From a virus: a DNA stretch of 64,000 bases. A model generated the notes under the pieces. The model did no database searches. It had not been told where the DNA came from and saw only the letters and a program-made list of their open reading frames with translations. Shown here piece by piece: positions 5,243 to 45,643 of the stretch. Both the position numbers and the translations under genes were made by a program. The stretch lies in IMG/VR virus record IMGVR_UViG_3300045988_049951; one strand, 5' to 3'. Each line of letters begins with the position of its first letter. Position 1 is the stretch's first letter.

Positions 5243-5818
5243 TCAATTAGACGGGAGTTTACATTGTTTAATTATTTCCTTAGTAATTACGTTATTAGCT
5301 TCTCTAGATAACTTATTCAGTTTCTCTAGGTCAAACTCGCTAGATTGAAACTTGAATTGAATCCAAGTTGGCTCGCTTGGTCTATAATCTAACCAAGATT
5401 CACAGTCATCGGTTCCAAGAACTTCTCGTACCATAGCTAAAATACGTTCACCAGCAGCTTTAGTTTTTACGAATCCAGATAAATCATATCCAACCCCTCT
5501 AGAATGCCAATATTCCCCTTCTTCTGGTCTAACATCCTTAGGTTCCCAATGCCAAGGAGGAATACCTTTTCTAGGATGGTCTATTTTTATAGCTTCTTCC
5601 TTTACCCATTCAGAGTTTGGGTCAGATGGATTTTCTGGATAAGCTCCATATAAGCACTTAGCAGTAGGGTTATTGCTCCTGACTTCAAAATGTATACCAC
5701 AATGTTTACAAGTACCAGAAGTTAAACCTCCTCCAGATACGCAACTACCTTTAATGGCATCACAACCACAGTTGGGACAACCCCATTTTAGGTATTCGTC
5801 ATAAAGTATTGATAACAT
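5243..5818 (-). CDS. zinc-ribbon protein (191 aa), function unknown
   Basis: N-terminal GCPNCGCDAIKGSC...TCKHCG cysteine cluster; ORF track. Confidence 0.45.
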   Translation of the reverse strand: MLSILYDEYLKWGCPNCGCDAIKGSCVSGGGLTSGTCKHCGIHFEVRSNNPTAKCLYGAYPENPSDPNSEWVKEEAIKIDHPRKGIPPWHWEPKDVRPEEGEYWHSRGVGYDLSGFVKTKAAGERILAMVREVLGTDDCESWLDYRPSEPTWIQFKFQSSEFDLEKLNKLSREANNVITKEIIKQCKLPSN

Positions 5819-6114
5819 TATTTATTGAGTTTAAATTCCACTTCTTTTAGAACAACATACATTTTACCATCCTCTTTCTGTTCAACACAATTATTAGCTT
5901 GTAAAAAATTAATTATGAAGTCCATAGGAATGTGGTAATTGTCAGTTACAAGCATACTGCCATCAATATGATAGCGTTCTTTTCTCTCTAATCTAGTGGG
6001 ATTACCATTTATAGTAATCTCACCAGAACATTCATTATCCTTATCTGGTTTAATTCCCTTTATGTAAATAGAATAACCAGCTTCAGCTAAATAAACTTGT
6101 TGTATTACACTCAT
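5818..6114 (-). CDS. hypothetical protein (98 aa)
   Basis: ORF track; coupled with neighbours by overlapping stop/start. Confidence 0.4.
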   Translation of the reverse strand: MSVIQQVYLAEAGYSIYIKGIKPDKDNECSGEITINGNPTRLERKERYHIDGSMLVTDNYHIPMDFIINFLQANNCVEQKEDGKMYVVLKEVEFKLNK

Positions 6115-7522: not shown

Positions 7523-7767
7523 ATAGTTAATTTTCTCCACGGGTGTAGATAAGTACCCCTTTGGTACTTACCTTTTAGTAGTATCTTTACTCTAGACCTC
7601 TATAAGGAGGCGGAATAGTTCCAGAAACTAACCATGTATAGCTCTTAGAACTCTGTTCAAAATACCACTTAGCAGCTTTCTTCACAACATTAATTACTTT
7701 CTTCATAACATCAAAGTTTAAAATTGTTAATAATTAATCTAATTCAGAGCCACAAAAGGAGTTTAGT

Positions 7768-7844
7768 TGCGGAGGTAGGATTCGAACCGTTTATGACGAT
7801 TTCTAGGTTATGAGCCTAGCGAGATGACCACTTCTCTACTCCAC
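7768..7844 (-). tRNA. tRNA-like with anticodon CAT (copy 2) and a non-canonical T-arm region
   Basis: Perfect anticodon arm CTAGG-CTCATAA-CCTAG and D-arm GAGA/TCTC, but the sequences flanking TTCGAAT do not form a 5-bp T-stem. Confidence 0.35.
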
Positions 7845-8121
7845 GATATTGGTAACTACTTTACATCCGCTACCCAGGGATGCCTCTATCACCAGTGAGG
7901 CACGGACTATTCTAACCGTATAGCACGACTGGTTGGTAACGTCTCCAGACACGGCATTTAGACTGAAAATGTCGAAACAGTGATTTAAAGATTAAATAGG
8001 CTCTGGAAGATATTTTCAAATATAGCCATACTATGATTTGGTTTTATTCTTACAGCATCCTATAATATGACTCTATGCAGATTTATTGTCAGTAATTCCG
8101 TTATTAATTTGTTGCATCTTT

Positions 8122-8229: not shown

Positions 8230-8249
8230 ATTTTTAAATTTAAAATTAG

Positions 8250-8333
8250 AATCCGTGGAGGGATTCGAACCCTCATTAAAGATTTCTCTTTTCAGTTTTG
8301 CAGACTGATGGCTAAACCATTCACCCACACGGA
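8250..8333 (-). tRNA. 84-nt type-II-like tRNA (long variable arm, 3-bp D-stem) with anticodon GCA (Cys) and discriminator T
   Basis: Acceptor ATCCGTG/CACGGAT, anticodon stem-loop TCAGT-CTGCAAA-ACTGA, variable arm AAAGAGAAATCTTTAAT, T-arm GAGGGTTCGAATCCCTC. Confidence 0.5.
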
Positions 8334-8335
8334 TA

Positions 8336-17187: not shown

Positions 17188-17667
17188 TCAGCCAAATATA
17201 CAAATCATTGAAGATATAAAGAATACAGCTCCTCCTACTACACTTGTCCAACCTCCAGCATCTTCGTCATTCTTAGATAGCTTTCCTCTACCAGTTAGTA
17301 GCATAAACAAGGATATTCCTAATAATATGATACCTATTACAACACCTGCTATCTCTTTGTAAAGTAATTTCCATACTACGATAGTTATTGCTGTTTGTCC
17401 CAAATTAGAGTCTGCTATTCTGATGGCGGAATCTTCAACTGCTTTAAGAGTTTCATTAACAGCCACGCCTATTTCCTTACCAAGGTTAGCATACTCAGAA
17501 ACTTCCTTGATTTCACCCTTTATAGCTTTCTCTGTTGTTATCTTCTCAATTTGAGTTCTAGTATCACTAGGCAACTTATCATAGTCTTCTTGTGATATAG
17601 TTATCTGAGAAAAAGCTGCTACGCTCATCCAGAGCATAGCAAGCATAATTACAAGGAACTTTTTCAT
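17188..17667 (-). CDS. secreted / membrane protein (signal peptide plus two C-terminal TM helices)
   Basis: MKKFLVIMLAMLWMSVAAFSQ signal peptide; C-terminal hydrophobic segments; start overlaps the stop of the upstream gene (TAATG). Confidence 0.45.
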   Translation of the reverse strand: MKKFLVIMLAMLWMSVAAFSQITISQEDYDKLPSDTRTQIEKITTEKAIKGEIKEVSEYANLGKEIGVAVNETLKAVEDSAIRIADSNLGQTAITIVVWKLLYKEIAGVVIGIILLGISLFMLLTGRGKLSKNDEDAGGWTSVVGGAVFFISSMICIFG

Positions 17668-18227
17668 TAGTCAAGCCATTCAAATTCTTCACCCTTGAAA
17701 TGTCTTGCAAAACAAGCATCGAACACTAGCTTTCCAAACTGGGTTGATACGTATTTGGCAATCTCTTCAGATTTGCACGCAAGCATCCCGACAAAGGAAT
17801 TGGCATAGCCGACGTCAAAGTAAGAATTGAAAGAGCCGAGACCCGCATAGCCGCCATAATGCGCGCTGCCGCCCACCAACGCGAATTTCTCGCCCTGATA
17901 ACGGAAGTGACCAATGACTTCTGCATCCTTCGGAACTGATTTCATTCTAAAGAAGCGAACCCAGGGATACCATATAGTACCAGTTAACAGATTGAACTTG
18001 TGACCTTCATTTAGCGCATCCAAGACTGTCTGCAACTTAGCTAGAGAATTTACAGATCTATTGTAGTAAATAGTATCTCTAGTAACACACCCTAGATAGT
18101 TTACAGCATCCTCATAGGTTCTTATCCGTCCCATAATGTTTTCTGGAACGATTTCAACATTGCCAGTTTCGGCATTATAGATGGGTTTATAACCATCTGG
18201 ACATTCAATTTCAATTGTCTTTTTCAT
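17667..18227 (-). CDS. second (remote) DGR target protein: small C-type-lectin/FGE-like protein carrying variable repeat VR2
   Basis: Residues about 116-147 (LVGGSAHYGGYAGLGSFNSYFDVGYANSFVG) are encoded by a GC-rich 90-nt segment homologous to the DGR template repeat; every difference from the template lies at a template adenine. Confidence 0.6.
   Translation of the reverse strand: MKKTIEIECPDGYKPIYNAETGNVEIVPENIMGRIRTYEDAVNYLGCVTRDTIYYNRSVNSLAKLQTVLDALNEGHKFNLLTGTIWYPWVRFFRMKSVPKDAEVIGHFRYQGEKFALVGGSAHYGGYAGLGSFNSYFDVGYANSFVGMLACKSEEIAKYVSTQFGKLVFDACFARHFKGEEFEWLD
17788..17878 (-). repeat. DGR variable repeat 2 (VR2), inside CDS 17667..18227
   Basis: About 90-nt alignment to the TR (43822..43919) with some 18 mismatches, all at TR adenines (A to G/T/C). 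Confidence 0.7.
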
Positions 18228-23620: not shown

Positions 23621-24004
23621 GATAAATATTTTTATTAATTATTACTAGAACTATTAGTTTTAGCTTGAATAGCTTACTTATCTCCTAAACCACGTAAAGG
23701 TTGTTCTTATCTTAGGAGTAGGAGACCTAAGTCTCCAATGCATACAATTGTTTCTCAACAACCTACGCCGTCATATATAATGAAAAGAGATGGATTATCC
23801 TGTGCCTACAATCATTTAAGATTGTCTTCGATTGTTGGTGCAATCTCACAATACTTTGCCTTATCTCTCGATAAGACACCTCTCCAGTATCAAGGTCATA
23901 CTGTTTGATATAAGAGATGCTCTGCATTAGTCTCTGGGCGTACCCATTATAATCCTAGAAAACGTAACAAAAGCTACAAGTAGTTGTAGTCATTGAATAC
24001 CAAG

Positions 24005-24074
24005 TTCCCTACTCTGGACTTGAACCAGAATCTTCTCCTTTAGAGGGAGATATACTGACTTGTACTAGTAGGGA
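24005..24074 (-). tRNA. suppressor tRNA with anticodon CTA (reads UAG); amino-acid identity unknown; 70 nt, short D-loop
   Basis: Acceptor TCCCTAC/GTAGGGA, U8, D-stem GTAC/GTAT, perfect anticodon stem TCTCC/GGAGA with loop CTCTAAA, T-arm TCTGGTTCAAGTCCAGA. Confidence 0.65.
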
Positions 24075-26453: not shown

Positions 26454-26525
26454 TGCCCTATGGTGTAATGGTCAGCACAGATGACTCTAAATCATTTAGT
26501 CTGGGTTCGAATCCTAGTAGGGCAA
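26454..26525 (+). tRNA. suppressor tRNA-Gln-like with anticodon CTA (reads UAG)
   Basis: TGCCCTA TG GTGT AATGGTCAGCAC A GATGA-CTCTAAA-TCATT TAGTC CTGGGTTCGAATCCTAG TAGGGCA A; the body closely resembles the genome's tRNA-Gln(TTG) (same TGGTGTAATGGT D-arm). Confidence 0.8.
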
Positions 26526-26766
26526 CGCCAAAATTAATAGTTATGATAAATTTAAATGAGAATTATGCTGTAACTCCAACAGGAGCTAAGACCCTTATTA
26601 TTGAAGAGGGAGATGATTGGAATAAAGTTTGCGATAAGGTAGTTGGATGTAGATTTGATTACATATTTGTACCTCAAGAATTTGAGAATCAAGCCTGCTA
26701 CTTTCTTCCACAAATAAGTATTCAAGGAAAGCAGATAGGTAAGATATGTACTTATAAAGTAGTGAA

Positions 26767-31891: not shown

Positions 31892-34252
31892 ATGCCTAGA
31901 AAGAAAAAAATATTACCTGAAGAAATCTAGAATATAGTAGATTAGGTAAGAGAGAAAGAACAAAAAGAGGATGCCAAAGAAGCTAGAGAACTAGTATAGA
32001 AGATAAGAGAGGAAAGAGGCAAAAATGCTGATTATTGGGATGTAAAAAGAGGAGATAAGATAGAGGTATTTGACCCTACTTTATCTTATGAAATAACTGG
32101 ATATAGACCAATAGATGAAACACATGGTCTTGATTTCGACCCAGATTGGTTTACTGAGACCAGAGAAGTATATAGAAAAACTGGAAAGTATTGTCCATAT
32201 CTAAAAGATAGTAAGAGATATAATGAGTTTTGGAAGGAATAGTATAGAAGATGTAAATATGGAATGACTGTTAATGGTTATACAATTACTGGAGATAACT
32301 ATTTCTTCCTAAACTTCTACTAGCTTCCTATTATTGATGATAACAAGGCATCTGGAGAAGGAACAAGTAGTGACTTTCCTATATTTTTCGCATCTCATTA
32401 TATGTTCTTTCATTATCTATAGATGGCTAGAGTTCTGCATAAACACGCAGCTCTTATGAAAGCTCGTTCTATTGGATTCTCTGAAATAAATGCATCCTTA
32501 TCTGCAAGAATGTATTCAGTAATCAGAAGAAGCAGAGTAATGATTACCTGTTTTAATGATACCTTCCTTAAAGGTACTTTTAGTAAGTTTGATAATGCTT
32601 TAACATTCTTGAATACTTGTACAGGAGGAGGATTCTTCAAACTACGTTTGATTGACCAAGACTTAAGAAAGAAGTCCGGTAAACAGATTAAGGTAAACGG
32701 ACAGTTTGAGGATGTTGGATTTAAATCGGAAGTAGTTGGAATAAATGGAGCTAAGGCATCTAATATTCGTGGAGACCGTGTTGACCTATTAATATATGAT
32801 GAAGCGGGGTCTTGGCCCGGACTAGATACTGCTGTAGTGCAGGGACAAGAGCTTTGTGAAGTTCAGGGTAAACCTCGTGGAACAATGTTATTTGGAGGTA
32901 CTGGTGGTGATATGGGTGCTCCATTAGCAGGTCTTAAGAAGATATATTACAATCCAAAAGCTTACAAAGTTCTTCCATTTAGACATAATTATACACAGGA
33001 TGGGACTACTATTGAAAGTGGGTTCTTCATTCCATATTTTGTCTAGTCTCTAAATTCAGAATACATGGACCATAGAGGTGTATGTAATACAGTAGAATAT
33101 AAAAAGTATCTATAGGAAGAGCGTGACAATTTATTAGCAGTTCCAGACGACTATCTAAAGAAGTGTGCCGAACGATGTTGGAATGCAGAAGAAGCATTTA
33201 ATCTTGAAGGTGTTAACAAGTTCAACAAGATTCTTATTGCGGACCAGTTAGCTAATATAAGACTTAAGAAAATAGGACCAAGACCAGAATCTGGATACAT
33301 AGACTATTTCTATAAAAATAATAAACACACCTAGGATAATATAGATGGTTTTAAATGGATTCCTAATATTAACGGAAAAGTAAAAATACTTGAACATCCT
33401 GTATGGTCTGATTTGTATAAAGAGTAGATGGATAAACTTAGATAGGAAGCCGAGGAAAGGGGAGAAGAATTTGAATCTCCAGCGTACAAAGAAATGCATG
33501 ATTTATATGTTGCAGGAATAGACGGTATTGATATAGGAGCTAGTCAAACTTCAAAAGAAACAAGAGATCCTTCTGATTTCTGTATAACTATAAAAAGAAG
33601 AGCGTTTGGTCTAAACGAACCGTAGTATGTTGCTATGTATAAAGACAGACCTAATGACATTAGAGAAGCTTATAAAATAGCTATGTGCTTAGCTAGATAC
33701 TATAATTGTAGAATAAACATAGAAGCTACTCGTGTAGGTATGATTACTTGGGCTAGAGAAAAGGGTTGTTTAAACTACTTTATGAAAAGACCTAGAGCTA
33801 CTCTAACAGACGTCAAGAATGGAACTACTAAATAGTACGGAACACCCGCTACCAAAACTATTATAGAACAACATACTGATTTGACAGCAGCCTTTATTGA
33901 GGATTTCTGTCATACTATATGGTTTGAAGAAATGTTAGACCAATTTACTGGATATAATGATGAGAATAAAGGTAAATTCGATATTGTAGCAGCTGTGGGA
34001 ATGACAGAATTGGCAGACTAGGAATTGTCAGGAAGATAGCCAGTGCTTGTTGAAAAAGAAGTTGAACAATTCCAAGATTATGGTTATTATTACGACGAGA
34101 GAGGAATCAAAAGATTTGGGGTTATACCAACTTCTAAGACTTTTGAAACTAACATACAAAAAAATGAATACGATGACCCATACAGAATTGAAACAAGTGA
34201 TCCTAGGTTATATGAGAGACTTGTACAAAATGGAATACGTAGGTGGGCTTGA
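31892..34252 (+). CDS. terL: terminase large subunit (about 786 aa) with about 15 in-frame TAG codons
   Basis: Single frame joins track ORFs 32423, 33635 and 34043; Walker-A-like KARSIGFSE, Walker-B VDLLIYDEAGSW, nuclease motif YVAGIDGIDIGAS...DFCITI...INIEATRVG. Confidence 0.6.
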
Positions 34253-34410: not shown

Positions 34411-36621
34411 ATGCAACTAAACTTCCTCCAGAACAGCATAATTTATGTTATGAAAGAAAAAGAACTGATAGACAAGACGAACGAGGCTATTGCGGAGCTT
34501 GTATATGATAAGTACGAATTATAGAAAGCCTATAATTACTATAACGGAAAGAGAGACCCAGAATAGTTTCGTTACCTGGAAGAAAACTTTGGAATAGGTA
34601 GTCCTACTTCTGTAGAATTTACACCATTACTAAAAAAGCACGTAGATGCTCTAGTAGGGGAATATCTAGGAACCCCTATCCTTCCGAAGATTTCTTGTAA
34701 GGATTCAGATACCATTAGTAATATCACCAGAGAAAAATAGTTAGAAATAACTAAAGGAATAGTTAAATTTCTTAGAGACCATTTAAGTAATTCTATTCTG
34801 AAATTTATCGACGGAAAAGATATTACAGATAAAGCCGTGAAGACTTAGTTAGATAAAATTATTCAAGACATTGATTAGTCTTTTATTTCTCAATATGAGA
34901 TAGCTGCATAGAATATTATTCATTATATTATGCAGTCTAGAGAAACCGATTTAATAACTAAACTCCGATAGTTACTTACAGATTTATTAATTACTGGCTA
35001 TACATTTTTCAGAGTAAAATCATCATCTTCTGGAACTAACATAGAAATAGAAGTTCTGAATCCTTTAAATACTTTCGTAGATAGGAATCCAGAATCTCCA
35101 TATGTTAGAAATTCGTATAGAGTAGTAGTTAGAAAATGGATGAGTAAAAGCTAGATATTAGCTAAATACGGAAAAGAAATCTCTAGAGAAGATCTGAAAA
35201 GACTAAAAGATGAATGGAGAGCCGATGATTCAGCTGCAGTTTATAGAAGAGTTTATGGTGACACTTGTACTATAGTAAACGAAGACTAGAATCATGAAAC
35301 TATTCCTGGATATCCAGATAATGAATATAGTGCTCATAGATTTTAGTTAATTCCTGTTTATGATGTAGAGTGGATAGAAACTGATGACGATTTTGTAATG
35401 TAGAGATACAATACCATTAGAATTGGAGAAGAAATATATATTCTGAGAGGTCTAGACAAGACTGTTATGAGGTCAAAAGATAATCCTAATTTCTGCTCTT
35501 TGTCTGTGAATGGGGTATATTTCTTAAATCGTTCTCAACAACCGTACTCTCTGATATTAAAGTGTGCACATCTACAGGATAGATATGACTTGTTAAATTA
35601 TTATAGGGATAACCTGATAGCTAACAGCGGTACTGCTGGAGTAATCATGGATATGTCATTGCTTCCTACTAACCTAGGCGTAAAATGGCCAGAAAGAGTG
35701 TAGAAATGGTTAGCATACAAGAAGGGTGGTATCATGTGGATTGATTCTACTTAGGAAGGGAGAAATGACGGAGCGCAAGCACCTAACTAGATATACAATG
35801 GATTTGATGATACCTTAAAAGCTTAGGCTGTATAGGCTATTGAATTAGCAATTCAATCAGTAGAACAAACTACATCATCTATAACTGGAGTATTTAGAGA
35901 AAGATTAAATGGAATAGAAACTCACGATGCTGTAACTAATATTAAGCAAGGTGTTACTAACTCTTACATAGTAACCAAGCATTATTTCTAGTAGATGGAC
36001 CTAATCACTTGTGAGATATTATTGGATAGTCTAAACTAGGCTAAAATAACATATAAGAAAGGATTGACTGGTACTATTATACTTGGAGATAAATACTAGC
36101 AGATATTTACAGCACTTCCAGAATATTTTACGGTTACTGATTATGACATCCATATAACTTCTAGCTCTGAAGTAATGGAAGATTTACAAACTATTAAAGC
36201 CATTATTCCAGAGTTTGTTAAAAGTCAGCAAATGGATCCTGACATCATATTTGAAGCACTAACTGCTAAGAGTCTTACAGACCTTAAATATAAGGTTAAG
36301 AAAGCAGTATAGATTCGTAAAGAAGAAAACAATTAGCTATAGCAGCTATAGGAAAAACTGGAAGAAACTTCACAATAGGCACAGCAGTTACAGCAAGAAC
36401 TATAGAAAGCTTAGTAGAAGATAGAAAGTTTGGATGAATAGAGATTAGGATTAGAGTAGCAGAAAATGTAGTTAGAATATAAAGTTAACTGGCTCAAAGC
36501 TCAATCTGATTCTACATATAAAGATAGACAAATGGATATAGAAGAAAAGAGAACTGAAATAGAGTTAGCTTAGCTTCATGATGGAAATCCATATAATGAC
36601 AAAATAAGACAAATACATTAA
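34411..36621 (+). CDS. portal protein (about 735 aa) with many in-frame TAG codons; start 34411 or 34450
   Basis: Single frame through track ORF 35467; position after terL; Gln-rich coiled-coil C-terminus. Confidence 0.5.
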
Positions 36622-41924: not shown

Positions 41925-43745
41925 ATGGCAGCTATCAAATCTATAAAGGTTGAAGAAACCGTATATGACTTAAAGGCTACCTATGATGGCTCTGGAAATG
42001 TTATAGATTAGACATATGCAAAATCTAGTGCCATTCCAACTAAAGTGTCTTAGTTATAGAATGATGAAAATTATTTAAAGGAACACTAGGATATAAGCGG
42101 TTTAGCTACTAAAACGGAGTTGGAAAGTAAGGTAGATAAAGAATTAGGAAAAGGACTTTCTGAAGCTAATTACACAGAAACTGAAAAACAGAAACTTAGT
42201 GGTATTGCAGATAATGCAAATAATTATGTACACCCAACTACTTCTGGAAATAAACACATACCTGCTGGAGGAGCACTTGGATAGATTTTAACCTTTTCTG
42301 AAGATGGGACTGCATAGTGGGCAGATACTAGTACTAAGTTAGAGGAACAATTTAATGTTCTTAATACTGCTTGGGAAGAATTACAAAAAGAACAATAGAG
42401 TCTAAGCAAACAAGTCACAGAGTTAAGCAGTAACGTAGACTTATACTCTTATGGAGTAGAATGGGATATTACCGTATCTTCTCCTATCCTTACTAGAATA
42501 GGAAACCCACTATTACATAAATCCCTCCCTATTTAGTCCGCTTACAGAGGATGTGTAGCAAATAACGGTGTGGTAAATTACTATTTATATCCGGACGATT
42601 GGGCTTACAAAGAAGATGGAAGTACTCCTTCTGTGCTTGATGGAACTGATGGAACTGTAAGAGTCCACACTCCTAAATTTTATGGTAAATCAGGCTCTAA
42701 TGGAAATAAAAGATGGGTTAGAATTTCTCTAGTAAAGCTTGATGATTCATGGGTAGAAATACCAGAACTATTAATTGACGCATATAGAAATACCGTTGAT
42801 AATACTGTGTCAGCAACCCCTAAAGCTGTGTCTGTGGTCAATACTACAGAAGCATTTAGAGGTGGTGGAAATAGAGCACAATTCGATGAGTATCTAACTA
42901 CTGAACTTGATACCAAAGATGCTTTTAGAAGCGATTTAGGAAAACCTAGAACTAATGTTTCTAGAGCTAATATGAGAACTTATGCTACAAATGCAGGTTC
43001 TGAATTATTATGCTATGAATATTATAAATGGATATTCTACTGGAACTATGTAATAGAATATGCTAACTTTAACTCCCAGGCTGCCTATAATGCCGAACTT
43101 ACTTCTGATGGTTATCGTCAAGGAGGACTTGGTCCTGGAGTTACAGACTGGAGTAACTCTGCTACAAGTTGGTCTGGATATAATGGAACTTATCCTATTA
43201 CTCCATGTGGTTATTGTAATGATATTGGTAACTTCACTGGAATCAAAGATTTAGTTATTCCAGAGTGTACTGCAACAAACGAAACAGATACAGTAGCGAC
43301 TAAGACATTTAAAGTTCCAAGATGGAGAGGTTTTGATAATCCATTTGGAGATATTTGGACAAACCTAGATGGAGTAGTTATTCAAAGAACTGCGGCAAAT
43401 GAAATCAGTAGTGTGTATACTACCACAAACAAGGAAGAGTTTACTGACGTAATTGGCAGCAAGACCATAGCAGGATACGAGGTAGCGCAAGATGGATACA
43501 TTAAAGAGTTTGACTTAGGAGAGACAGCAGAGATTATACCATCTTCTTGTACTGGAGCCTCAGCTACAACTTATATATGTGACTACCACTCTTGCAATGC
43601 TACCTCTACAGAGCTTCGCACGCTGCTGGTGGGCAGCAGCGCGTATTATGGCGGCTATGCGGGTCTCGGCTGTTTCACTTCTAGCAATGCGGTCGGCAGT
43701 GCCGTTTCCGTTGTCGGGTTTAGGACTCTAAATAGAGTATCTTAA
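41925..43745 (+). CDS. DGR target 1: tail-fibre / receptor-binding protein (about 606 aa) with C-terminal variable repeat VR1
   Basis: Frame from the ATG at 41925 through about 9 TAG codons into track ORF 42570..43745; N-terminal tail-fibre repeat GLSEANYTETEKQKLSGIADNANNYVHP; C-terminus LLVGSSAYYGGYAGLGCFTSSNAVGSAVSVVGF. Confidence 0.65.
43622..43720 (+). repeat. DGR variable repeat 1 (VR1), last about 35 codons of CDS 41925..43745
   Basis: About 98-nt alignment to the TR; essentially all mismatches lie at TR adenines (A to G/T/C); locally GC-rich. Confidence 0.8.
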
Positions 43746-43821
43746 GATAAAATATAGAAAATCGATTTAGATATAAATCGTAGGATATTACTTCTAAAAA
43801 CCGTTGATTGGCAAAAAAGAA

Positions 43822-43919
43822 CTGCTAGTAGGCAGCAACGCGAATAATGGCAGCAATGCAGGTCTCAGCTATTTCAATTCTAACAATGACGTCAGCAATG
43901 CCAATTCCAATGTCGAGTT
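43822..43919 (+). repeat. DGR template repeat (TR), adenine-rich, noncoding
   Basis: ctgctAgtAggcagcaAcgcgAaTaatggcAgcAatgcAggtctcAgctAtttcaAttctaAcaatgAcgtcAgcaAtgccAattccAatgtcgAg; it would translate as an Asn(AAY)-rich LLVGSNANNGSNAGLSYFNSNNDVSNANSNV. Confidence 0.8.
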
Positions 43920-44058
43920 ATTATATATTTAGAACAATTTATTTTATTTTTTTAGTTTGCTAAGTAATATCCTTGCCTCTAGGCAAAAGACAACGTAGTG
44001 TTAAATGAAGGGTGTTAGTAGGTTAAATCTCGAAAGCTTCCGATGAAATATATAAAAA

Positions 44059-45267
44059 TTGAAACGTGTAGGATATTTGCACGAACGAGTGTATGATTTG
44101 AAAAACATCGAATTAGCTGATGATAAGGCTAGAAGAAATAAATCAATTCGATGTGGTATTAAGTAGCATGATAAGAATAGATTAGAAGAAAATAAGGAAT
44201 TATCAGACAAATTAAAATAGCTAATCTATTAGACTTCTGAATATAGTACATTTATAATATATGAGCTTAAAGAAAGATTAATCTTTAGACTTCCATATTA
44301 CCCTGATAGAATCACTCATCATGCTATAATGAATATTATGGAACCTATCTGGACCAGTATTTTTATAGATTAGACATATTCCTCTATAAGAAACAGAGGG
44401 ATTCATAAGGTAGAGTATGATTTATTCAAGGTATTGTAGAAATACTCAGATGAAACTAAATACTGCCTAAAAATGGATATAAGAAAATTTTATCCATCTA
44501 TAACACATGACATCCTGTATGAGATGTTGTAGAAGAAAATAAAGGATAAGAAACTGTTAAGTCTATTGAAGGAAATAATATATTCAGCCAAAGGAGTTCC
44601 TATTGGAAACTATCTATCATAGTTCTTTGCAAATTTATATCTGACATATTTTGACCACTGGATAAAAGAGGAGTTAAAATGTAAGTACTACTTTCGATAT
44701 GCTGACGATATTGTGATTCTTGGTAATGACAAGAATTATTTGAGAAATGTATTAGTATCTATAAAACTGTATTTGAAACAAGTTCTTAATTTAGAATTAA
44801 AACCTAACTACTAGATATTTCCAGTAGAAAGTAGAGGAGTAGATTTTGTAGGTTACAAATTTTATCACACTCACGTTCTATTAAGAAAATCTATAAAAAT
44901 GAGAATGTTTAGGCTTATAAATCTATATAAGCAAAATAAGATTGATAAAGAAGAATTGGAAAGAAGAATGAGATCTTATTTCGGCTGGATGAAATTCTGT
45001 GATTCTAAGAATTTGTTGAAAAAGATAGAAACTTTGACTGGTTTGAAGTTCTCAAATTGGAATGGAAAGGAAGTCAATATATCTAAGTTTTATAATAAGT
45101 ATATTCATATCATAGAGGTGGTTGATTATCATAGCCATTTCAGAGTGCACTTTATGTATAACAACAAACCCTATTATTTTAAAAGCAAGAATAAGAAATT
45201 ACATTATTCTTTGCTTAGATACAAATTTCCTATAAATTTTAAAGTAACACCTTATGTTAGAACCGAA
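44059..45267 (+). CDS. DGR reverse transcriptase (about 400 aa; probable non-ATG start, TTG 44059 or GTG 44089), four in-frame TAG codons
   Basis: Motifs ...RLPYYPDRITHHAIMNIMEPI..., GVPIGNYLSQFFANLYL, RYADDIVILG (YADD), C-terminal SYFGWMKF thumb-like region; the frame is continuous from the TAA at 44053. Confidence 0.75.
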
Positions 45268-45277
45268 TAGAATACAA

Positions 45278-45643
45278 ATGAACGTTTGTCCTTAGGTAAT
45301 TCAAAAACTTGGGAACGGTACTTATTATTATAATTACGATATAAGAGAAGTTGAGGCTGAAGTTGAAATACTAGATGAGAAAGACAGTACTAAATTTGAA
45401 ACTTAGTACAATTTCATCTAGGTTTTACTTAATGGGCAACCTAATTATAAGGATTGCGTAAGAGCTATTATTAGAAGTTTTATAACCATAGATGAAGAAT
45501 TTGATTTAATCAACTCGTATAATAGTTATACAAAAAACCTTAGCACAGATTCTTCTATCATAACAGATTATCAAGAATATCTTACTAAATTAATGGATAT
45601 TAAAGACAAAGTCAAAAAAGATTTTGGACTTGTGAATAAATAA
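45278..45643 (+). CDS. hypothetical protein (121 aa, three TAG) downstream of the RT; possible DGR accessory protein, not a recognisable Avd
   Basis: Manual translation MNVCPQVIQKLGNGTYYYNYDIREVEAEV... Confidence 0.3.

Follow-up and report, generated by a model that had tools for sequence, protein, structure and literature searches.

The closest described relatives of the locus reported here include the diversity-generating retroelements (DGRs) that Zeta crAss-like phages carry, and the DGR of Bordetella phage BPP-1. Of 43 genomes in a survey of Zeta crAss-like phages, 18 carried DGRs (2025, Int J Mol Sci 26:7694, PMC12386605). The sections of that survey dealing with these elements report reverse transcriptases (RTs) of up to 414 aa with a GxxxSQ motif and variable C-termini, the protein Avd in only two phages, and a subgroup (ctoVY1, cthgQ11 and 3717_85572) with genomes of 182–189 kb, 24–27 tRNAs and a CTA suppressor (PMC12386605). 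In Bordetella, a 140-nt spacer RNA (Sp) of the DGR binds the enzyme and supplies the priming adenosine, and residues R74, I181 and Q187 of the Bordetella RT (bRT) are named at the template/dNTP site (bioRxiv 10.1101/2023.10.23.563531). Here, we analysed 64,000 nucleotides of the IMG/VR virus record IMGVR_UViG_3300045988_049951; this whole stretch of DNA is called the window. We conclude with high confidence that the window carries an active DGR, and that it belongs to a TAG-recoded crAss-like gut phage of about 186 kb.

Repeats, targets and reverse transcriptase of the element

The template repeat (TR) and the first variable repeat (VR1) of the window (Table 1) aligned without gaps at an offset of −199, giving 77 matches and 21 mismatches over 98 positions. 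TR adenines account for 20 of the 21 mismatches, being replaced by G (13), T (5) or C (2) in VR1, and the remaining one is at a non-adenine (43890 C>G) beside a changed adenine; the probability of at least 20 of 21 mismatches falling at adenines was 7.8e-10, and the Fisher test gave 1.6e-12. In the frame of the VR, the TR consists of successive AAT, AAC and AGC codons and is rich in AAY (Asn). VR1 ends 25 nt ahead of the stop of the open reading frame (ORF) 41925-43745, which is open only when TAG is read as sense. The product of this ORF matches phrog_5302 ‘tail protein’ (E 1.8e-83), and its homologue in phage cr7_1 is annotated as a tail protein. An earlier note on this DNA, made from the letters alone, had described a TR of about 98 nt at 43822..43919 matching the 3′ end of a fibre gene, differences almost wholly at TR adenines and an Asn-rich reading of the TR, all of which the alignment reproduced. 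Its VR1 coordinates (43622..43720) were right at the end and one base too early at the start.

The repeat search also recovered a third copy of the repeat, VR2, which was absent from the earlier note and lies 25.7 kb from the TR inside a second gene. VR2 is complementary to VR1 at 84% and to the TR at 81% of positions. All 19 differences from the TR within its core fall at adenines, and the four non-adenine differences are found at the two edges only. VR1 and VR2 both end in TGTCGGG, and the TR has TGTCGAG. Similarity between the two target proteins is limited to the 31 residues encoded by the VRs. In the protein database, the VR2 protein was represented by 830 clusters at 90% identity with nearly equal lengths. 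When a degenerate TR pattern was run over all viral contigs, no contig had more than three copies and no fourth copy was found in this group.

The RT frame is opened by a TAA at 44053-55, and the TTG at 44059 is its first start-like codon. All 35 close relatives have TTG here, and three more distant loci (L051, L055 and L056) have ATG instead, in agreement with the TTG or GTG start that had been expected. The TAG codons are numbers 36, 54, 58, 105, 127, 158, 188, 252 and 404, so that the earlier count of four had to be raised to nine. The frame had also been taken to end at the TAG at 45268; its end is the TAA at 45331-45333, which is kept in 32 of 35 relatives. Because five relatives have a sense codon (GAG or AAG) in place of TAG 404, and because the 21 residues past it are conserved even in a clade with 72% identical RT, the length of the protein was set at 424 aa. 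It exceeds the length of bRT by a basic C-terminal extension of about 96 aa, which is conserved in the relatives including the part past TAG 404. The identity of the RT protein to that of relatives is 87–98%.

The affinity of this RT to the DGR clade is directly supported. Its frame carries IGNYLSQFFANLY and YADD, as had been noticed, and motif 4, which in DGR-clade RTs is [LIV]GxxxSQ in place of QGxxxSP, reads IGNYLSQ with Q188 encoded by TAG. The protein matches Pfam RVT_1 and, at 375 bits, the phage RT family phrog_1423. The best relative of solved structure was bRT (8ub7 chain A; 155 bits, E 2.4e-44), and solved group II intron and retron RTs scored at most 60 bits (E 1e-14 or weaker). The residue numbering of 8ub7 (D138, I181, Q187, D215/D216) is that of bRT in the cryo-EM paper (bioRxiv 10.1101/2023.10.23.563531). 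Residues R73, I182, Q188, D140 and D216/D217 of the window RT align with R74, I181, Q187, D138 and D215/D216 of bRT, and the roles conserved by this alignment are adenine mutagenesis for R74 and I181 and dNTP contact for Q187.

The spacer between TR and RT contains a conserved structured RNA, which matched the Rfam family RT-17 (RF03020) over the full length of the model at 29.7 bits (E 4e-4), a sub-threshold score as the gathering score is 40.4. The same position in the related locus L060 scored 43.7 bits, above gathering. Features that the window RNA has in common with RT-17 are its place directly upstream of an RT start, the hairpin CCUUGCC...GGCAAAA and a UAGUAG...CGAA core; unlike curated members of the family, it is a divergent relative below the threshold. 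The blocks CCTTGCC-NCTN-GGCAAAA, AACGTAGT, GGTGTTAGTAGG and CGAA are kept across loci whose RTs are 58–72% identical. A literature search on Rfam RT-17 found nothing. By analogy, we infer that the spacer RNA is probably the part of the DGR RNA that binds the RT and primes cDNA synthesis, and the counterpart of the Bordetella Sp. An AU-rich long-range pairing between the 3′ flank of the TR (TTATATATTT) and the end of the spacer (AAATATATAA) was also predicted, with one compensatory change in L051, and was not relied on, its 5′ strand being partly deleted in L002.

Adenine-directed variation across related genomes

Related loci were fetched from IMG/VR contigs, mostly of 183–193 kb, with the RT (80 loci) and with the VR2 protein (38 loci). 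The TR was identical at 98 of 98 positions in 21 related genomes, in which every VR1 and nearly every VR2 was different. Among 34 VR2 sequences 33 were distinct, and they differed at adenine sites only. Changes were counted over 22 distinct VR1 sequences, the window's included, and 33 distinct VR2 sequences, with non-adenine sites restricted to the core. Sites templated by adenine were changed in 1211 of 1650 cells (73%) vs 11 of 3300 (0.33%) for non-adenine sites. The sequence next to the repeat did not share this variation: among the seven closest relatives, the 400 nt upstream of VR1 were 96–100% identical in all but one, for which the comparison was out of register, and in four of the seven VR1 was 80–84% identical beside an upstream flank of 99.5–100%. 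In clades with 66–73% identical RTs the TR itself has diverged, and the VR tracks it at non-adenine sites (1010/1023).

Adenine specificity and the diversification of both targets across genomes are thus directly supported, and ongoing mutagenic homing is indicated because the TR is invariant while VR1 and VR2 vary at adenines across genomes. Both targets are in use, and the pattern is the one that repeated mutagenic homing from an invariant template gives; it does not arise by ordinary selection or recombination. The earlier note had held that mismatches in related genomes not specific to adenine, or an RT grouping with group II intron or retron enzymes, would speak against a DGR. Adenine-specific change and an RT closest to bRT were found instead, and every such point that the note had raised came out for a DGR.

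A few related loci depart from the usual TR. In L010 and L032 (both at 5762-5859), VR-like adenine substitutions lie inside the TR, with 26/30 and 24/30 adenines kept, respectively, and in L066 a VR-like sequence is found at the expected place of the TR (about 5830-5880). These VR-like TRs could have arisen by occasional homing into the TR or by chimeric metagenome assembly.

The outcome at a TR adenine was found to depend on the base that follows it. Eight TR adenines precede a G (43827, 43830, 43834, 43852, 43860, 43867, 43894 and 43916), and of the 440 corresponding VR cells, 422 hold G, 16 have kept A and 2 have T or C. At TR adenines before A or T, the VRs are spread across all four bases. 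Three of the eight are silent third-codon positions (CTA, GTA and GCA). Because these silent sites behave like the others, protein-level selection is not the whole cause, and a property of the RT is the likelier explanation of the conversion. The pattern was followed in additional loci (L034-L059 and L053-L081): G was found at 93% of pre-G adenines in the clade with 66–73% identical RTs (n=123), and likewise at 93% in about 20 further DGRs with RTs of 54–61% identity and quite different TRs (n=112). The pre-G adenines are conserved in the diverged TRs.

In 2026, the nucleotide 3′ of a template adenine was reported to govern the error of bRT in E. coli, and bRT was proposed to re-copy the 3′ nucleotide after slippage (PMC12875486). 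Re-copying of a G would give exactly the A-to-G outcome. The pre-G pattern fits this −1-nucleotide context effect and the slippage model, with a conversion that is far more complete here; such near-complete natural conversion, together with the retention of pre-G adenines in the TR, seems not to have been described so far. One possibility is that the pre-G adenines of the TR are neutral in the face of AT mutation pressure; another is that they serve to keep the TR different from its targets, with the cDNA gaining perfect G-rich homology blocks. If they are functional in this way, the cDNA would acquire blocks of perfect homology to the targets (GGTGGGCGGC, GCGGGTCTCGGC and GTCGGG), and the TR DNA would stay unlike the target, a distributed equivalent of the distinction between the initiation of mutagenic homing (IMH) element and IMH*. 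The joint proposal that pre-G adenines are copied near-deterministically as G (93–96% in the three independent sets) and kept as ‘masked guanines’, and that the second target, in a presumably early module, is not a receptor-binding protein of the virion, is put forward tentatively, as possible and somewhat doubtful.

We propose the following route for the element. The RT from the adjacent gene would bind an RNA that includes the TR and the structured spacer downstream of it, and the resulting cDNA would replace the homologous 92–98 nt in two genes. One destination would be the C-terminal tip of the tail protein (VR1, 200 nt upstream) and the other an internal segment of a small protein (VR2, 26 kb off on the opposite strand); the TR itself would remain unaltered. 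With no Avd gene at hand, the RT with its C-terminal extension would act alone or with an unrecognised partner.

Table 1. Coordinates of the retroelement and of other features in the window.
Feature	Position	Strand	Remarks
TR, template repeat	43822..43919	+	98 nt, 30 A, non-coding, 139 nt upstream of RT start
VR1, variable repeat	43623..43720	+	last ~33 codons of target gene 1
VR2, second variable repeat	17785..17882 (core 17787-17878)	-	inside target gene 2, 38 codons before stop
Target gene 1, tail protein	41925..43745	+	606 aa, 8 in-frame TAG, VR1 at C-terminal end
Target gene 2	17667..18227	-	186 aa, phrog_11581 (function unassigned), 0 TAG, un-recoded module
DGR reverse TRANSCRIPTASE (RT) gene	44059..45333	+	424 aa, TTG start, 9 in-frame TAG
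Conserved structured RNA	43969..44057	+	in TR-RT spacer 43920-44058 (139 nt)
121-aa ORF	45278..45643	+	3 TAGs, overlaps RT 3′ end, phrog_11557 (function unassigned)
Suppressor tRNA, anticodon CTA	26454..26526	+	ARAGORN; resembles phage tRNA-Gln(TTG) and cr7_1 tRNA annotated Gln
Second tRNA, anticodon CTA	24004..24074	-	ARAGORN; more divergent in alignment
Terminase	31892-34252	+ block	in TAG-recoded region
Portal	34411-36621	+ block	in TAG-recoded region

TAG recoding and layout of the window

The reading of TAG in the window was deduced from four kinds of comparison. Six of the nine TAG positions of the RT are CAA or CAG in most relatives, and of 25 TAGs in the RT genes of relatives, 23 correspond to CAA in the window. 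Codon 188 is the invariant Gln of the DGR SQxFAN motif, and codon 252 aligns with a Gln of bRT. The TAG positions of the 121-aa ORF are Q in its homologues, and the tRNA(CTA) on the plus strand is Gln-like. Because of this CAA/CAG alternation, the bRT-aligned Gln, the homologues of the 121-aa ORF and the Gln-like tRNA(CTA), TAG is read as Gln in the window, a sequence-level assignment that is directly supported.

In-frame TAG is restricted to a plus-strand block of about 30.7–60 kb, where most genes have 1.3–4.3 per 100 codons; in addition to terminase and portal, this block holds the DGR and the tail genes. The confident (long) minus-strand genes at 1–25.6 kb have no TAG. The plus-strand genes at 26.4–30.5 kb are also without in-frame TAG, which places a sharp switch of code near 30.7 kb, and the two tRNA(CTA) genes, at 24.0 and 26.5 kb, stand where the divergent modules meet. 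In total, 26 tRNA genes were found in the window (2924-26526), 25 of them interspersed with minus-strand genes; 24 form a minus-strand array with small ORFs in between. Several are oversized for their type (a Met tRNA of 80 nt, 7766-7845, and a Cys tRNA of 86 nt, 8249-8334), which hints at introns or miscalls.

With nine in-frame TAGs, synthesis of the RT depends on suppression, so that the dependence of its expression on the suppressor tRNA, as the earlier note had put it, is borne out by the TAG-to-Gln recoding. Until suppression is established the RT cannot be made, which would presumably limit mutagenesis to late infection. This late restriction agrees with a published idea on recoded phages that is cited in the Zeta survey (PMC12386605). 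A scan for sigma-70 promoters gave matches at chance level, and no plus-strand terminator was found between target, TR and RT.

The gene of the second target stands in the un-recoded module. An ATGA overlap joins it to the start of another gene, whose 159-aa product has an N-terminus that is signal-peptide-like by eye, with hydrophobic stretches beyond. Downstream of the VR2 gene (14162-17667, minus strand) follow genes for a small protein that is lipoprotein-like by eye (16669-16899), for a hydrophobic protein of 172 aa that may be a membrane protein, and for an SPFH/Band 7 protein of 657 aa; the last of these genes has 66-nt tandem repeats (15038-15256). Because of these signal-peptide-like, lipoprotein-like, hydrophobic and SPFH/Band 7 neighbours, the module of this DGR target looks membrane-associated. 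A diversified small protein in an un-recoded, presumably early module suggests a target other than the receptor-binding protein of the virion.

The large terminase is 26–29% identical to those of classified Crassvirales, and 42–45% identical to those of two unannotated human-gut ‘Bacteriophage sp.’ records (MT835470 and MT835539). When 25 kb of the window was compared with GenBank phages by megablast, no near match was obtained.

Alternative explanations and comparison with known systems

Several observations weigh against the reading as an active DGR. The variation lies between assemblies of different samples and hence shows activity over evolutionary time, giving no rate. A long invariant IMH-like block was not seen, the homology of VR and TR stopping at GTCGGG vs GTCGAG, and no hairpin common to the 3′ flanks of VR1 and VR2 was found; a 6-bp hairpin follows VR1 but not VR2. 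No match for either target was obtained in Pfam or NCBIfam or by sequence and profile searches of PDB, and the AlphaFold 2 (AF2) model of the VR2 protein was poor (pLDDT 47). The C-type-lectin (or Ig) ligand-binding fold expected around the VR of a DGR is accordingly putative for these targets. The Bordetella DGR requires Avd, for which there is no room between VR1, TR and RT in the window, and none of the 36 small ORFs of the 64-kb window gave an Avd-type Pfam match; this agrees with the earlier note, which had seen no Avd gene between target and TR. Avd (or HRDC) is not universal among DGRs. For the fold of the targets, AlphaFold 3 models of fibre proteins from Zeta crAss-like phages were reported to show a C-type-lectin fold in the part of the survey that treats them (PMC12386605).

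If the locus were a fossil, with repeats and RT gene as relics and the TAGs as inactivating stops, then the nine TAGs that break the RT under the standard code, the missing Avd and the non-adenine mismatch of VR1 would be readily understood. However, all the genes of the 30.7–60 kb block use in-frame TAG, terminase and portal included, and the TAGs of the RT alternate with CAA/CAG in relatives, one of them standing at the invariant Gln of the catalytic site. The invariance of the TR, the VRs that differ in almost every genome and the 87–98% identity of the RT are likewise at odds with decay, so that a fossil is already contradicted and very improbable. We assign still less weight, close to none, to an RT from another retroelement or a defence system (group II intron, retron or DRT/Abi), with the variation produced by recombination or positive selection. 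Models for such enzymes did match, with scores of 110 bits for group II, 70 for retron St85 and 62 for Drt3a among NCBIfam families and of up to 121 bits for RT/DRT models of PADLOC, but all these scores are below the curated cut-offs and weaker than those to bRT and to the phage RT PHROG. For a group II intron, TIGR04416 reached 110.7 bits against a cut-off of 300 and no group II Rfam family matched in 43600-44200 at E up to 1; for a retron, NF038233 reached 70 bits against a cut-off of 235 and no retron RNA family of Rfam matched next to the RT. Furthermore, only adenines of a single, invariant copy are the sites of substitution, a pattern that neither selection nor recombination produces.

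A different question is whether the RT of this DGR works by itself, or whether an accessory factor, either the 121-aa ORF or an Avd encoded beyond the 64-kb window, stands in for the missing Avd. The window covers about one third of the ~186-kb genome, which leaves space for such a gene. The long-form RT is always followed directly, with slight overlap, by an ORF of 117–129 aa (about 55 related loci, the distantly related cr7_1 among them), and most loci with the short RT (323 aa) lack it; the earlier note had placed the 121-aa ORF after the RT, which holds except that the two genes overlap. This ORF thus follows the long RT type by synteny. Against such a role, it is acidic and matches no Pfam or NCBIfam family, and the AF2 model of a 98%-identical homologue (pLDDT 54) consists mostly of strands with one helix and is not the four-helix bundle of Avd. 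It also diverges faster than the RT (65–69% vs about 91% identity), and the scarcity of Avd in the Zeta phages, as far as the survey's account of them goes, argues in the same direction (PMC12386605). We consider an accessory factor in place of Avd rather unlikely; the C-terminal extension, or else the ORF, may replace Avd.

The understanding of DGRs is unchanged by the window element. Its value is that of a clean natural case in which a DGR enzyme can be produced only under stop-codon suppression, by which hypermutation would be tied to the late, recoded programme of the phage; gene callers using the standard code would overlook such elements. From the relatives that share one invariant TR, an in vivo spectrum of mutations is obtained for a DGR RT that is not the Bordetella enzyme, and a single TR is seen to act on two proteins that are otherwise unrelated, one with an unassigned role.

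In comparison with BPP-1 (mtd/avd/TR/Sp/brt), whose RT is the closest of solved structure, the window element shares R74, I181, Q187 and the catalytic Asp residues, the adenine-specific mutagenesis, a TR upstream of the RT with a structured spacer of about 140 nt between them, and a VR at the C-terminal end of a tail fibre. Unlike BPP-1, the window lacks Avd, a GC-rich IMH and a hairpin common to its targets, its TR favours AAT over AAC, and it has two targets, one of them remote. Its RT further differs from that of BPP-1 in having the C-terminal extension and in needing stop-codon suppression. The crAss-like phage cr7_1 (Suoliviridae, NC_055895) is similar in nucleotide sequence (66% identity over 69% of the region), in the order of tail protein, RT and small hypothetical protein, and in an upstream tRNA with anticodon CTA annotated as Gln; it differs in its 104-kb genome, its family, an RT annotated at 319 aa and a large terminase of only about 28% identity.

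DGRs with multiple and with remote targets are known in general. The architecture found here is likewise already known, having been described in 2025 for crAss-like phages of the Zeta group in the sections cited above (PMC12386605). Like the window, these phages have the order tail-fibre target, TR and RT, an RT gene interrupted by amber codons, no Avd in most cases, amber recoding, a long RT (414 aa) and genomes of a size close to the 183–193 kb contigs of the window's relatives. A placement of the window phage within the Zeta clade, which calls for a large terminase of that clade and a genome above 150 kb, is possible; the contigs of its relatives are of 183–193 kb, and its large terminase was compared with those of classified Crassvirales and of the two gut records. 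In contrast to the window, one VR per cassette is described in these sections of the survey (PMC12386605). Relative to that account, two features are apparently new: the distant second target, which lies in a small gene free of TAG, and the many-genome evidence for the diversification of both targets.

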